This document shows positions 464-10,981 of a stretch of DNA of 27,097 nucleotides, piece by piece. Below the pieces are notes generated by a model, which was not told where the DNA came from, made no database searches, and saw only the letters and a list, made by a program, of their open reading frames with translations. Each line of letters starts with the position of its first letter. Position 1 is the stretch's first letter. This DNA is from an uncultured Candidatus Saccharibacteria bacterium. GTDB lineage: Bacteria; Patescibacteriota; Minisyncoccia; Phycocordibacterales; DATDWN01. The stretch spans positions 1 through 27,097 of the forward strand of contig CAYUID010000001.1 of assembly GCA_964444765.1 (NCBI GenBank), given 5' to 3'. A program made the translations under genes and the position numbers.

Positions 464-1384
464 GTGGCTTCTTTAAGCAAACTCAAAAGGCAATTTCTCG
501 AATACATCGAGATAGAAAAGGGCCGATCTCTTAAGACCATTGAGAATTACGACCATTACTTGGATGTTTTTTTGAATTTTTTGAAAAAAGATGACCCAGA
601 AGAAGTAAGTGACAAATCTGTCAGAGAGTTTAGACTCTGGCTTAACAGACAACCGGTTGGAAATGGCGGAAAAACTGTCTCAAGAAAAACCCAAAACTAC
701 TACCTCATTGCTCTTAGAGCTTTTTTAAAATATCTAGCTCGCCAGGAGGTAAAAACCTTACCTGCTGAGAGAATAGAGTTGGCGAAGGTTTCAGAAAGAT
801 CGCTTGACCTAATAACTAGAGAGGAACTCGAAAGGCTCTTAAATGCCCCAAAAGGTGGCGATATAAAATCCCTGCGAGATAGGGCCATTTTGGAACTCCT
901 TTTCTCTACTGGTCTACGTGTTTCAGAGTTATATTCCCTAACAAGAGACATAAATCTTAAAAGTGATGAGCTTTCCATTAGGGGCAAGGGAGGAAAAGTC
1001 CGTGTCGTTTTTATATCCGATGATGCCAGAAAGTACCTCAAGGCCTATCTAGACCAAAGAAAAGACTTAAATGATGCTCTTTTTGTTCAAGCGGGCAGAG
1101 AGATAAAGGGTAAAAATATTGGACCAAAAGAAATCGGTCCTTTAACCAAGAGGTCGGTCGAGAGAATAGTTAAACACTATGCTATAAGGGCTGGTATACC
1201 TAAAAAGGTTACCCCGCATGTTATTCGCCATTGTTTTGCCACTGATCTTCTATCAAACGGCGCAGATTTGCGTTCTGTACAAGCCCTCCTGGGCCATTCT
1301 AGTATCACTACCACTCAAATCTACACTCATGTTACCGATAAACATTTAAGAGATGTCCATAAGAAATTTCACAATAAAAACTGA
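464..1384 (+). CDS. XerC/XerD-family tyrosine recombinase
   Basis: N-terminal SAM-like domain. Catalytic set intact: STGLRVSEL (R), GKGGK (K), PHVIRH (HxxR), LLGH (H), TTQIYTH (Y). GTG start. Confidence 0.93.
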   Translation: MASLSKLKRQFLEYIEIEKGRSLKTIENYDHYLDVFLNFLKKDDPEEVSDKSVREFRLWLNRQPVGNGGKTVSRKTQNYYLIALRAFLKYLARQEVKTLPAERIELAKVSERSLDLITREELERLLNAPKGGDIKSLRDRAILELLFSTGLRVSELYSLTRDINLKSDELSIRGKGGKVRVVFISDDARKYLKAYLDQRKDLNDALFVQAGREIKGKNIGPKEIGPLTKRSVERIVKHYAIRAGIPKKVTPHVIRHCFATDLLSNGADLRSVQALLGHSSITTTQIYTHVTDKHLRDVHKKFHNKN

Positions 1385-4204: not shown

Positions 4205-4294
4205 GGTCAGGCATAATTTTCCATTGAAAATTTGCCCGACCCGGACTCGCGCCGTCGCGCTCCGTCTTGCACAAAGTGCCCCGCACTTTGTGCA
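4205..4294 (-). repeat. palindromic element in the tRNA-Arg trailer
   Basis: 12-bp inverted repeat TGCACAAAGTGC/GCACTTTGTGCA (4268-4294) overlapping the tRNA 3' end, plus a long hairpin at 4205-4241 with an AATTTTC..GAAAATT core. Confidence 0.7.
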
Positions 4295-8234: not shown

Positions 8235-8308
8235 GCGGGATTAGTTTATCGGTAAAATAACAGTTTTCCAAACTGTGGTGAGCGGTTCGACTCCGCTATC
8301 CCGCACCA
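8235..8308 (+). tRNA. tRNA-Gly(TCC), CCA encoded
   Basis: Acceptor GCGGGAT/ATCCCGC-A-CCA, anticodon arm ACAGT-TTTCCAA-ACTGT, T arm GCGG-TTCGACT-CCGC. Confidence 0.95.
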
Positions 8309-8450
8309 AAAGCGTAGCTTTTGCGTGGCGGAGTCGAACCGGATTGTCGGTCCACGAACCTAGTAGGGTTTGTCGACAATCCGGCGCCTAGAATTTTCTT
8401 GAGTGACGACGAAGGAAAATTCGGAGGGCGAATCTCCGCTATCCCGCACC
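8309..8450 (+). repeat. 143-bp palindromic tRNA-associated mini-element
   Basis: Hairpin AAAAGC/GCTTTT, 14-nt antisense copy of the T arm (8328-8341), 11-bp IR 8339-8349/8374-8384, AATTTTC..GAAAATT hairpin, then a 17-bp duplication of the tRNA 3' end (8434-8450 = 8291-8307). Confidence 0.75.
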
Positions 8451-8481
8451 GACATAAAAAGAATTTCCGAATAAGAATTAA

Positions 8482-8985
8482 ATGGAAATAAAATCTCAAT
8501 TTGAGAATAGGAGTAAAACTTATAAGGTTATCTACAATGATGGAGTTCCTAAGACTGAAACTGACCCTAAAATGCTAGATGGCGTTCATACTTATTGTTT
8601 TTATGGTGATAAGTTGGTCATTGTCAGTTCAGCTGAAAACCATTGGACTCCCCCAGGTGGAGCAATAGAAAAAGGAGAAACATATTCCGAAGCAGCTGTT
8701 AGGGAGATAAAAGAAGAATCAAACATGAATGTTTTGCGAATGGAATGTATTGGTTATCAAGACATTGAAATTCCCTGGGAAAGCAGAACAATAAGACAAT
8801 TTAGAATGTTTGCCATTGTTGAACCAGAAGGAGAATTTGAATCTGACCCAGACGGAGATATTTTTGAAATAAAGCTAATTAACCCAGAAGACTACAAAGA
8901 ATATATTAAATGGGGTGAAGTTGGAGACCACCTTATGAAAAGAGCATTGGAATTGAAGACTAAGTATAATAACTCTAAATTCTAA
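8482..8985 (+). CDS. NUDIX hydrolase (cargo of unit 2)
   Basis: Nudix box GGAIEKGETYSEAAVREIKEES. Confidence 0.88.
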   Translation: MEIKSQFENRSKTYKVIYNDGVPKTETDPKMLDGVHTYCFYGDKLVIVSSAENHWTPPGGAIEKGETYSEAAVREIKEESNMNVLRMECIGYQDIEIPWESRTIRQFRMFAIVEPEGEFESDPDGDIFEIKLINPEDYKEYIKWGEVGDHLMKRALELKTKYNNSKF

Positions 8986-8994
8986 TCATCTTAA

Positions 8995-9087
8995 CTAGAC
9001 TTTAGCTTCTGTTAACGATAATCTAGGTATATAGAAAATGGCGTTAGACTCTAGAAAACAGGTTCTAACGTCATTCACTATCCCGCA
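8995..9087 (-). pseudogene. start-less C-terminal protein tail crossing the att core (copy 1)
   Basis: Translates CGIVNDVRTCFLESNAIFYIPRLSLTEAKV*. No in-frame ATG upstream before a stop. Confidence 0.65.
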
Positions 9088-9094
9088 CCAAAAG
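9078..9094 (+). repeat. att-like direct repeat of the tRNA-Gly 3' end
   Basis: CTATCCCGCACCAAAAG, identical to 8296-8312. Confidence 0.9.
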
Positions 9095-9209
9095 TGTAAA
9101 TTTCTAACGTTTTTCTGAAAGTGTATGAATCTGTAACGATTCTTGGCGGTTATACTCTAGTTGTATAGAAATACAGAAGACTGATAGTTTTTGGACATGA
9201 ATATTGATT

Positions 9210-9266
9210 TTATGTTGATAAATATACGGTTTCATTAGTTTTTACTGCGGTTCTAACTTTAACGAA
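9210..9266 (-). pseudogene. possible third, degenerate tail relic
   Basis: Shares GGTTCTAAC (9249-9257) with both tails and translates FVKVRTAVKTNETVYLST*. It has no att core. Confidence 0.3.
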
Positions 9267-9268
9267 AA

Positions 9269-9290
9269 GGCCACCAGTATTCCGGTGGCC
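9269..9290 (-). terminator. intrinsic terminator of the HTH gene
   Basis: GGCCACCGG-AATA-CTGGTGGCC followed by TTTT on the - strand. Confidence 0.8.
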
Positions 9291-9306
9291 ATTCTCACTT
9301 GATTTG

Positions 9307-9690
9307 CTATTTCTGTGACAGCAAATCAAGTGCCGTATCCAAGTTTATAGGTCCTGATACCTCGACAATTTTAAGAAGGTATTCCAACTCCTCTCTACCA
9401 AGTTTTTTCTTTGGAGACGCAGCTTTGATGGTCATGTTCGGTAGTCCAAGCTTTTCAAGCCACTCCTCATGGTTGAAGCCAAGAACAACCCCGAGAGATT
9501 TCAAAGCCCTTCCTTGGCCTCTCTGTTGGTGGGGAGAGAGCTTGCCGTTTTTTGGCCACTTTTCTTTTTCAATCAAGCAGATGGTTTTTGTGCTGACACC
9601 TGCTCTGATAGCTAATTCTGCTTGGCCAATACCTAGCTGGTCTCTTTTCTCACGAATCATTGCAGAATATTCTCTCAGTTCCTTGATCAT
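9307..9690 (-). CDS. XRE/Cro-family helix-turn-helix protein
   Basis: IREKRDQLGIGQAELAIRAGVSTKTICLIEK HTH pattern, GAGGGAG RBS, about 53% GC in a sampled line. Confidence 0.8.
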   Translation of the reverse strand: MIKELREYSAMIREKRDQLGIGQAELAIRAGVSTKTICLIEKEKWPKNGKLSPHQQRGQGRALKSLGVVLGFNHEEWLEKLGLPNMTIKAASPKKKLGREELEYLLKIVEVSGPINLDTALDLLSQK

Positions 9691-9712
9691 TTTCTCACTC
9701 CCTCTTTCAAGA

Positions 9713-9786
9713 ATTATAGACTAAAGTATTAAATTGTCAACTAGTGTCGGACAAATGTTGACATTATTTTGACAACAGACTATACT
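9713..9786. promoter_or_regulatory. back-to-back sigma70 promoters
   Basis: - strand TTGACA(9740-9735)-16 nt-TATAAT(9718-9713). + strand TTGACA(9758-9763)-17 nt-TATACT(9781-9786). Confidence 0.85.
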
Positions 9787-9792
9787 GAGGAT

Positions 9793-10542
9793 ATGAAAGA
9801 AATTTTGGAAAATCTTGGCTTAAATAAAGGCGAAATAAACGTCTATTTAGTAGTTTTTAGAAATAAGAGAATTAAACCTGTTGAACTATCTAAGCTAACA
9901 AAAATCAAAAGGACTACGATATACAACATTACCAAATCTTTAGTTTCTAAAGGTCTTATTGTTGAAGATCTTGGTAAAGGGAAAAAGGAATTTGTCTTGG
10001 CAGATTCAAATGATATCAAATTAGTTTTAAGAAAAGAGGAAAATGACTTTAAGAAAAAGGAGGAATTGTTTAAAAGAATAATAGATGATCTAGAGGATTC
10101 TAACATTGGCAAGAGTTATAATCCTCCAAGAATAAGGTTTATTGAAGAGGATAAGGTAGGAGATTATATGATTTCAAGAAATAAAGTATGGAATGACAGC
10201 ATTCTTAAACATGATAATCATTGGTGGGGTTTTCAGGATCATACTTTTTTAGATAAATATACAAAATGGGTGGATTCTTTTTGGAAGCAGGCTTCAAAAG
10301 ATCTAAAACTCAAACTTTTGAGTAACGAATCTGATATAGAAAGGAAAATTAGAGGGAAATATCCAAATAGAGAAATCAAATACTGGAATAAAGGCAATTT
10401 TACCGCTACCACTTGGGTAGTGGGTGATTACCTTGTTTTAATTAGAACAGATAGTCATCCATTTTATTTAGTAGAGATACATGACTCTGTCCTCGCAAGC
10501 AATATGAGGGAATTATTTAAGAATATATGGGGAATAGTTTAA
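9793..10542 (+). CDS. TrmB-family winged-helix transcriptional regulator
   Basis: LENLGLNKGEINVY..ELSKLTKIKRTTIYNITKSLVSKGLI wHTH plus a C-terminal effector domain. Start moved to ATG 9793. Confidence 0.82.
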   Translation: MKEILENLGLNKGEINVYLVVFRNKRIKPVELSKLTKIKRTTIYNITKSLVSKGLIVEDLGKGKKEFVLADSNDIKLVLRKEENDFKKKEELFKRIIDDLEDSNIGKSYNPPRIRFIEEDKVGDYMISRNKVWNDSILKHDNHWWGFQDHTFLDKYTKWVDSFWKQASKDLKLKLLSNESDIERKIRGKYPNREIKYWNKGNFTATTWVVGDYLVLIRTDSHPFYLVEIHDSVLASNMRELFKNIWGIV

Positions 10543-10634
10543 TTGATTTTAACTTCAGTCAGAGATAAACTTGGGATATAGAATTGACTAGGACTGTAGA
10601 GAAAAAAGGTTCTAACATCATTCACTATCCCGCA
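10539..10634 (-). pseudogene. start-less C-terminal protein tail crossing the att core (copy 2)
   Basis: Translates CGIVNDVRTFFLYSPSQFYIPSLSLTEVKIN*, 22/30 identical to copy 1. Confidence 0.65.
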
Positions 10635-10636
10635 CC
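10625..10636 (+). repeat. distal att-like direct repeat
   Basis: CTATCCCGCACC, preceded by the same GGTTCTAACRTCATTCA as the 9078 copy. Confidence 0.88.
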
Positions 10637-10652: not shown

Positions 10653-10694
10653 AGTAGTTCAAAAAAGCGCTTTTTGGCGCTTTTTTGAACTACT
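10653..10694. terminator. bidirectional terminator
   Basis: Perfect 18-bp IR AGTAGTTCAAAAAAGCGC/GCGCTTTTTTGAACTACT between convergent trmB and hup. Confidence 0.85.
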
Positions 10695-10708: not shown

Positions 10709-10981
10709 TTATTTAACTGCTTCCTTCAGAGCTTTTGCTGCTCTAAACTTAGGCACTTTCATTGAAGGAACGGAGATAGTCTCACCAGTTCGAGGGTTTC
10801 TAGCTTGTCTAGCTGCTCTTGTTTTTGTTGAGAAAATTCCAAGACCAGCCACCGAAACTTCTCCTCCCTTCTTTAATGTATCAACTATGGAGTTAATCAT
10901 TAAATCAACGACTTCCTCTGCTTGAACTTTCGTTCCGCCGAGTTTTTCGTGTACTGCGTCTACGATTGATGCTTTATTCAT
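10709..10981 (-). CDS. hup: HU DNA-binding protein
   Basis: MNKASIVDAV, VAGLGIF, RQARNPRTGE, PKFRAAKALKEAV. Confidence 0.95.
   Translation of the reverse strand: MNKASIVDAVHEKLGGTKVQAEEVVDLMINSIVDTLKKGGEVSVAGLGIFSTKTRAARQARNPRTGETISVPSMKVPKFRAAKALKEAVK

Follow-up and report, generated by a model that had tools for sequence, protein, structure and literature searches.

What has built the series of short units, each closed by a copy of the end of a tRNA gene, that separates tRNA-Gly(TCC) from hup in an ultra-small bacterium of the Patescibacteria? The window analysed here is the entire contig of 27,097 nucleotides on which this locus lies, part of a 505-kb assembly of 83 contigs that is 79% complete. 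The original prediction, made from the letters of the contig, was that the units form an integron-like cassette system that uses the tRNA as its insertion site. The hot spot, the shared unit end and the arrays that this implied were all found; the ends themselves, in contrast, appear to be tails of a large serine recombinase (LSR) gene and not integron sites. In our view, two unrelated kinds of element have probably inserted one behind another at the 3′ end of tRNA-Gly(TCC), with units 2 and 3, counted from the tRNA, being recombinase-less cassettes of an LSR family. In the comparisons below, genomes carry G labels and loci carry L labels.

The units are defined by repeats of the last 12 nt of the tRNA. 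This core, CTATCCCGCACC, occurs exactly at 8296, 8439, 9078 and 10625, always on the + strand, and the copies at this locus are the only ones in the 505-kb assembly. Shuffled sequence gave a mean of 0.74 core matches at two or fewer mismatches, and none of 100 shuffles reached five. The four co-oriented copies, and the unit sizes of 143, 639 and 1547 bp to which their spacing leads, are therefore as originally described. The copy at 8439 is actually 17 nt long (CTCCGCTATCCCGCACC), and ∼15 nt 3′ of the core are also common to copies 1, 3 and 4. The anchor, the junctions and the right ends of the two larger units are as follows.

8235–8308, + strand: tRNA-Gly(TCC), the anchor (ARAGORN; Rfam RF00005 at 61.5 bits); its final 12 nt (8296–8307) are core copy 1
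8998–9077, − strand: unit 2 right end, putative orphaned LSR C-terminal tail (...CGIVNDVRTCFLESNAIFYIPRLSLTEAKV, then stop), from frame and tail homology
9078–9089, + strand: core copy 3, an exact copy of the tRNA-Gly 3′ end at the junction of units 2 and 3
10542–10624, − strand: unit 3 right end, second putative orphaned LSR tail (...CGIVNDVRTFFLYSPSQFYIPSLSLTEVKIN, then stop), from frame and tail homology
10625–10636, + strand: core copy 4, an exact match, followed by the native tRNA–hup spacer

The two larger units had been said to share a homologous right end of about 90 bp, and this is so: positions 8998–9089 and 10545–10636 are 79% identical in DNA over 94 nt. The most conserved part is an 18-nt motif, AGGTTCTAACRTCRTYCA, at 9060–9077 in unit 2 and 10607–10624 in unit 3, which is followed by the tRNA-end copy. 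On the minus strand, an open frame runs through the core and stops inside the right end; through the unit 2 right end the frame is open over 8998–9156. The tails encoded by the two units have the same residue at 21 of 30 positions. All 240 motif sites encode (D/N)DVRT in this same frame on the minus strand. Two other functions considered for this region were rejected: no sigma-70-like site passes the promoter scan in the right end, and a plus-strand mini-open reading frame (mini-ORF) across the core is open at copy 3 but closed at copy 4.

The source of the frame is suggested by the LSR genes of this genome and its relatives. The genome encodes an LSR of 517 aa with Resolvase, Recombinase and zinc-ribbon domains (contig C2:11226–12779, minus strand), the final 63 nt of which overlap a tRNA-Gln(CTG) on the opposite strand (noted at C2:11215–12779). 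Because of this overlap, the tRNA antisense supplies the codons for the last ∼20 residues of the protein. Relatives in this family number more than 1,300. Among the best 120, 69 end in ...GNWL...DSN(Q/P)...SYH, a sequence obtained when a tRNA T-loop and 3′ end are read in antisense; a smaller number have tails like those of the window, with endings such as ...GNWL..VDDFRT or VDAVRT. In one of the loci (L268), an intact LSR gene has a native tail that crosses the junction of motif and tRNA-Gln core; it lies behind a NUDIX and a methyltransferase cassette, at a distance of 4.6 kb from a tRNA-Gln. The element is complete at L164 and L186, where the LSR is proximal to the tRNA and the tail is distal, and in G440, where a tRNA-Asn is overlapped by an antisense LSR, with 9 kb of genes and then an array of 11 motif copies beyond it. 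On this homology, we read the right ends in the window as the orphaned 3′ tails (the last ∼30 codons) of an LSR gene that has its attachment site inside the gene.

This reading bears on two elements of the original prediction. A search for a recombinase gene abutting a tRNA-Gly core elsewhere in the genome had been proposed; a recombinase gene abutting a tRNA core is indeed there, on tRNA-Gln. No second copy of the tRNA-Gln end, the attachment site of the LSR element, was found on the 22-kb contig C2. The right end is not an attC-like site and is better explained as the tail of an LSR gene spanning its own attachment site; the system is therefore kin to tandem islands of the LSR type rather than to integrons.

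The cargo of the units was identified from profiles, and the following features complete units 2 and 3 and the downstream flank.

8482–8985, + strand: NUDIX hydrolase gene, the cargo of unit 2 (Pfam PF00293, E = 1.4e-14)
9090–9300, + strand: unit 3 left end, non-coding (repeat family D6; similarity to relatives)
9307–9690, − strand: Xre-like helix-turn-helix (HTH) protein gene, cargo of unit 3 (Pfam Xre-like-HTH and HTH_19, both weak)
9769–10542, + strand: TrmB-type winged-helix gene, cargo of unit 3 (Pfam TrmB, E = 1.9e-10)
10653–10694: two-way terminator 3′ of core copy 4, an 18-nt perfect inverted repeat (I1)
10709–10981, − strand: hup, the downstream flank of the locus

The NUDIX, Xre-type HTH and TrmB-type winged-helix genes are those of the stretch from tRNA-Gly to hup, and the profiles support the original assignment of cargo. 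No recombinase gene was found between tRNA-Gly and hup in the window by ORF and profile annotation, as had been claimed for the individual units. The HTH and TrmB-type genes are divergent, and the latter likely starts at the in-frame ATG at 9793. A 12/12 sigma-70-like promoter for the HTH gene lies at 9740–9713 on the minus strand, and an 11/12 match for the TrmB-type gene at 9758–9786; with its promoters placed back to back within 9713–9786, unit 3 is thus a self-contained regulator pair. The terminator of the HTH gene (9269–9290, minus strand; terminator scan) falls within the unit 3 left end. This left end also holds a degenerate second copy of the motif (9102–9115) and resembles the stretch that follows the core in G024 (82% over 133 nt) and in G014 (78% over 91 nt), each with different cargo. 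For unit 2, the order tRNA, trailer, NUDIX gene is also seen in G031 and G018. Paralogues of the NUDIX gene with 74–76% DNA identity occur in ordinary contexts of relatives that contain no tRNA, and the idea that the NUDIX gene is itself a travelling cassette was rejected on the ground of these close DNA relatives.

To see how far the locus varies, the orthologous tRNA-Gly/hup region was taken from 26 genomes of the same genus. The flanks are syntenic in 24 loci of the genus, with orf103 and a trypsin-like protease upstream and hup, RNase Y and ClpP downstream. The distance from tRNA-Gly to hup ranges from 135–136 bp (G026 and G021) to 3.1–3.4 kb (G024 and G014), and the cargo differs in almost every species. 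It includes NUDIX, ASCH and DUF3850, bPH_2, a zeta-toxin-like kinase, an HD 5′-deoxynucleotidase, DUF2784, a methyltransferase with an AAA kinase, Schlafen/AlbA_2, a nucleoside deoxyribosyltransferase and winged-helix proteins. The spacers of G026 and G021 are empty: nothing but a two-way terminator stands between tRNA and hup, and it is of the same kind as the one 3′ of core copy 4, placed directly 3′ of the tRNA. The shared right end is found with other cargo at this locus in G005, G014 and G015, and a contig of G062 has a homologous tail (...CGIVNDVRTYFQTNNAYFYIPSLSLTEAKIN) followed by a tRNA-Gly-type core and different downstream genes. The tRNA-Gly/hup locus is thus an insertion hot spot with unit-level variation among relatives, and the variation that the original prediction called for was found. 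None of the 26 spacers contains a recombinase gene.

Beyond the genus, the right end turned up in other families when 400 genomes from the order were searched; it lies there behind tRNA-Ser(GGA) and tRNA-Ser(GCT), where a single cargo gene is followed by the right end and then by a copy of the end of that tRNA-Ser. The motif with a tRNA-end copy was found at at least 120 loci in species-representative genomes, overwhelmingly metagenome-assembled genomes of Patescibacteria (the Candidate Phyla Radiation) and from many of their classes. As this collection amounts to 596 Gb, in which ∼140 chance matches to the motif are expected, isolated matches outside the phylum should be given little weight. 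Of 400 genomes drawn evenly from the phylum, 21 contain the motif, with 32 matches compared to five for a reversed control pattern. The 11–13 nt 3′ of the motif resemble the 3′ strand of a tRNA acceptor stem. When the tRNA-end copy was compared with the upstream tRNA on the same strand, nine of 27 loci matched at eight or more of 10 positions, against a mean of 1.9 and a maximum of five when tRNAs and loci were paired at random. Thus the right end does occur with other cargo and at other tRNAs, often in long recombinase-less arrays.

A phage origin was considered and rejected, as nearly all of 20 motif matches in viral contigs are coding coincidences. One IMG/VR contig with terminase, portal and capsid genes (L248) carries a single genuine-looking junction of motif and tRNA end at its end (oriented position 96), and may be a prophage next to, or using, such a site.

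Many of the motif loci are multi-copy, with arrays of at least 10 cassettes and with at least five tRNA types as anchors. The clearest view is given by a complete chromosome of 516,640 bp (G438), which has ∼24 motif copies. The first of its arrays (at least 10 copies) begins 1 kb behind the sole tRNA-Asn; the second (at least 11 copies) is on the other replichore; and small sets of the motif lie behind both tRNA-Gln genes. The two large arrays are oriented with replication, and cassette arrays make up ∼3% of this one complete genome. Across all loci, the median spacing of the motif within arrays is 779 bp (n = 91), and in 59 of 77 cassettes the longest ORF points the same way as the array. The cassettes have their own promoters and terminators and carry unrelated cargo: an ArsR–thioredoxin–ArsP–DsbD set, a subtilase, a DNA alkylation repair protein, GNAT and many unknowns. 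One of the G438 cassettes recurs in two other genomes at 81–88% DNA identity with different neighbours. The junctions inside an array are near-identical over ∼30 nt, often including the terminator that follows, and their tRNA-end copies resemble each other more than the resident tRNA. In the array of G440 (L267:13042–16236) there are four places with pairs of motifs 55 nt apart, which look like ‘empty’ units composed of little more than two junction halves.

Unit 1 does not belong to this family, although it had been counted as one of its cassettes. It is a separate, structured element, which we term a type A tRNA trailer, and it copies the 3′ end of the tRNA that it trails. Its own line in the feature list is:

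8309–8450, + strand: unit 1, a type A structured tRNA trailer, non-coding (family alignment and covariation)

The unit consists of an inverted copy of the T-loop and T-stem (8328–8341), three conserved hairpins and, as its right end, the 17-nt direct copy of the tRNA 3′ end (8434–8450) that includes core copy 2; unit 1 thus accounts for that copy. The loci followed were this one and L057–L080. With unit 1 as the query, at least 25 copies were found in 16 of 41 genomes of the genus, each 0–70 nt 3′ of a tRNA gene and in the orientation of that tRNA. The tRNAs trailed in this way include those for Gly, Leu, Cys, Lys, Gln, Glu and Asn and four Ser isoacceptors. A three-hairpin core is common to all copies, whereas the ends vary from copy to copy and match the adjoining tRNA. 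For the 17 copies whose tRNA T-loop fell inside the stretch examined, the left part is an inverted copy of the 3′ portion of the element's own tRNA (exact over 10 nt or more in 14) and the right end is a direct copy of the last bases of that tRNA (exact over 11 nt or more in 10). The copy in the window is without the leading hairpin and the anti-acceptor segment that relatives carry.

Covariation supports the fold. In the consensus structure, compensatory changes are seen at 26 of 36 pairs, and 94.9% of the alignment cells are paired, compared to 76% for column shuffles (none of 500 reached the observed value) and 38–53% for slid partners. A G-U pair is kept in 18 of 23 copies; as this pair would become a C-A mismatch on the opposite strand, the constrained strand is the tRNA-sense strand. 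No Rfam family other than tRNA matched, with the gathering threshold applied to the window and E ≤ 1 to four copy-bearing loci.

Two further trailer types, unrelated to type A, occur behind tRNA-Gly in relatives. Type B, which carries GGGGTCGGGAAAG... plus GGGAAAACC..GGTTTCCC hairpins, lies directly 3′ of tRNA-Gly at L027:3103–3245 and at L039, L032 and L046. On its two sides, as in type A, the tRNA-Gly 3′ end recurs, once inverted and once direct, and in G007 it is nested within a type A copy. The third type (GGAGCGCGACGGCGCGAG..GGGTCGGG...CCTGACC) sits behind tRNA-Gly(TCC) in G002 and G008 and, in the window, behind tRNA-Arg(TCG) at 4205–4289 on the minus strand.

How might units 2 and 3 have come to lie behind tRNA-Gly? 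In a free or tandem form of the element, the LSR gene would run antisense to the tRNA and cross the attachment core, with its last ∼30 codons beyond the core. Integration at the 3′ end of a tRNA would split the gene, and the body next to the tRNA would gain a substitute tail encoded by the tRNA antisense. The native tail would then remain at the distal junction, immediately ahead of the displaced tRNA-end copy. The window would contain two such distal junctions, each composed of a right end plus a core. As described above, an LSR of the same family is encoded in this genome, on tRNA-Gln. The cassettes were most likely inserted, and are perhaps still moved, by an LSR acting in trans, and would thus be cis-mobilizable units. 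Consistent with trans-mobilized units, the cassettes are small and uniform, their junctions are preserved, some are common to several genomes, no remnant of an LSR body was detected in the spacers and arrays searched, and a recombinase within 8 kb is seen at just two of 121 motif loci. Whether units 2 and 3 themselves can still move is a separate matter, and present-day mobility appears to us somewhat doubtful.

Several observations weigh against this explanation. There is no LSR at the locus, in the 26 loci of the genus or anywhere in the complete G438 chromosome, and an LSR lies within 8 kb in only two of 121 motif loci. The link to the enzyme is for this reason drawn from the homology of 30 codons and a handful of intact cases. 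The canonical LSR reaction takes place between attP and attB only and needs no long identity; stacking at internal junctions and repeats of 12–17 nt are not accounted for by this textbook reaction. The LSR found in this genome is located on tRNA-Gln, and any action of it on tRNA-Gly sites is putative. In G031, the NUDIX gene is followed by neither tail nor core, and for this reason the NUDIX gene and the first tail may have arrived in the window separately. Finally, no circles, empty-site joints or within-sample polymorphism were seen in contigs of 3–5x coverage (three runs from one rock-metagenome study), which informs neither way.

The best-surviving alternative is that the units are inert scars. 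They would be what is left of LSR-bearing islands after deletion of the recombinase module, and the array would only record past integrations; this develops the serial decay that the original prediction had named as its own alternative. We regard it as possible but less than probable. In keeping with it, the tails are orphaned, cannot be translated as part of a gene and have diverged from each other by 21%, the NUDIX gene of G031 is without any tail or core, and the shallow contigs, uninformative in themselves, show no junction. Full elements with a proximal LSR and a distal tail exist in L164, L186 and G440, and islands without a module are also found among the ssrA islands of Dehalococcoides (PMC3146451). 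Decay is weakened, however, by a tblastn search that found no fragment of an LSR body in the spacers of the 26 genus loci or in 14 kb of array sequence from G438. The cassettes are moreover uniformly small, mostly co-oriented and at least 10 in a row, the 12-nt cores and the 18-nt motif are intact while the surrounding sequence diverges, and the neighbours of one and the same cassette change from genome to genome. It is therefore carried as a rival, behind insertion in trans.

A less likely alternative is ordinary homologous recombination after DNA uptake, in which the 30–45-nt junctions would serve as portable homology and no site-specific enzyme would be needed once a junction exists. This would fit the near-identity of array junctions over ∼30 nt, often with a terminator, the persistence of arrays in genomes that have no LSR, and the closer resemblance of the tRNA-end copies to each other than to the resident tRNA. 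It leaves unexplained how the first junction at a tRNA end arose and why the motif is constant across classes of the phylum, and 30 nt is near the lower limit for RecA-dependent exchange.

The remaining alternatives concern other enzymes. IS110, TnpB, rve and DDE_Tnp_1 are absent from five array-bearing genomes, and complete G438 has none of these and no serine recombinase. A single tyrosine recombinase, of Xer type, is present in each of the array-bearing genomes examined. The one in the window (464–1384) scores as XerD/XerC/XerA, lies 7 kb from the array and reaches 144.8 bits against TIGR02249 (integron integrase), for which the cut-off is 265. A true integron-like platform driven by this host enzyme, in the manner of integrative mobile elements exploiting Xer (IMEX) or of pdif, with the motif as its binding site, is very improbable: the single Xer, the lack of other recombinases in G438 and direct repeats of 11–17 nt, typical of tyrosine recombinases, speak for it, but the window enzyme is under the integron-integrase cut-off, the motif is fully explained as LSR coding sequence, and its reverse complement, although faintly like a XerD arm, is unrelated to the best dif candidate of G438. 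That candidate, at ∼498,206, is a perfect palindrome (..ATGATAA / TTATCAT..) with two 11-nt arms and a 6-nt spacer, near the peak of cumulative GC skew and 3.4 kb from the only xer gene, and is plausible as the dif site of a lineage with a single Xer.

Recombinase-less cassettes inserted by an LSR in trans, the explanation preferred here, have relatives among described systems, and the closest are the ssrA islands of Dehalococcoides. These islands, with the LSR DsiB, are arranged in tandem downstream of a gene for a small stable RNA (McMurdie et al. 2011, PMC3146451). They are bounded by ∼20-nt direct repeats of the 3′ end of the RNA gene, have a recombinase of ∼540 aa on the reverse strand at attL, and carry strain-specific cargo; some have no recombinase module and were proposed to be cis-mobilizable (PMC3146451). 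In both systems, direct repeats of the 3′ end of the target gene bound tandem units downstream of it, here as four exact 12-nt copies. The unit ends in LSR islands come from the attachment site of the recombinase itself, and the right ends here are homologous to native LSR tails. A reverse-strand LSR next to attL, a trait of ssrA genomic islands and of staphylococcal cassette chromosome (SCC)-like elements, is absent from the window locus and present at the C2 tRNA-Gln, the G440 tRNA-Asn, L164 and L186. Unlike ssrA islands, the cassettes use many tRNA targets, are about ten times smaller, with usually one or two genes, are nearly all without a recombinase and are spread across the Patescibacteria. 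Here, in addition, the LSR gene would span the attachment site and an orphan tail mark each junction.

Integrons, including sedentary chromosomal integrons, are arrays of small single-gene cassettes separated by attC sites, and a cluster of attC sites lacking an integron-integrase is known as a CALIN. Like these, the arrays described here are long series of small, mostly co-oriented, mostly single-gene and functionally unrelated cassettes, each ending in a recombination site; they occupy ∼3% of a genome, and the recombinase is often not nearby. Unlike integrons, they have no IntI-type recombinase at the head of the array, they are anchored by a tRNA gene and not by attI, and their cassettes have promoters and terminators of their own. 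An attC hairpin with R and L boxes (RYYYAAC ... GTTRRRY), read by eye only, is not present; the site is instead composed of apparent LSR coding sequence and a tRNA end. The array thus works in an integron-like way without the IntI and attC that define integrons.

Cis-mobilizable elements (CIMEs), known from streptococcal integrative and conjugative elements (ICEs), move by accretion and mobilization at tRNA genes and are in tandem with, or related to, an autonomous element of the same site. Units 2 and 3 are likewise flanked by putative attachment sites of an autonomous family and contain no recombinase or transfer genes. CIMEs, in contrast, derive from ICEs with tyrosine recombinases, number few per genome and are kilobases long, where the present arrays have dozens of sub-kilobase units. 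The integrases of SSV1-type archaeal viruses have attP inside the int gene, which is split by integration, and also target tRNAs; the proposed LSR arrangement has the same attachment site within the recombinase ORF, the same partitioning of the gene and the same class of target. It differs in that the SSV1 enzyme is of the tyrosine type, is split near the middle and is inactivated, whereas the LSR would lose ∼30 codons and gain an antisense-tRNA tail. The tycheposons of Prochlorococcus are islands seeded at tRNA genes in streamlined genomes, with partial tRNA repeats scattered within the islands and newer elements pushing older ones outward (bioRxiv 10.1101/2020.12.28.424599). The streamlined genome, the tRNA-seeded islands and the partial tRNA repeats are shared with the present locus; tycheposons, however, carry their own integrase and replication modules, are much larger, and no orphan-tail motif has been reported for them.

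Our search of the literature found no description of such arrays in Patescibacteria, and the layout looks like a means of storing accessory genes that is integron-like and so far undescribed. Patescibacteria have genomes of 0.5–1 Mb with few recognized mobile elements, but strains nevertheless differ in gene content. Cassette arrays could provide a concrete route by which these bacteria stock and exchange accessory genes, the cargo so far including nucleotide-handling enzymes, small regulators, defence-like genes and arsenic-related genes. A serine recombinase gene that is cut by its own reaction and then reads into the antisense of a tRNA would be an unusual arrangement. More speculatively, and with the balance against it, the whole could be an LSR-based gene-capture platform of integron-like character in Patescibacteria. 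A trans-acting LSR would insert, stack and reshuffle sub-kilobase cassettes at tRNA 3′ ends, the exchange of the native tail for the antisense-tRNA tail would act as a switch of direction or activity, and the tRNA trailers would be a second, RNA-shaped class of passenger. The structured trailers, with ends matched to their own tRNA, pose a question separate from that of the cassettes.

Reverse transcriptase genes, with no link to the arrays, were noted in three of the four to five array-bearing genomes checked (G438:437,814–438,341, G439 and G440), and these are probably diversity-generating retroelements.

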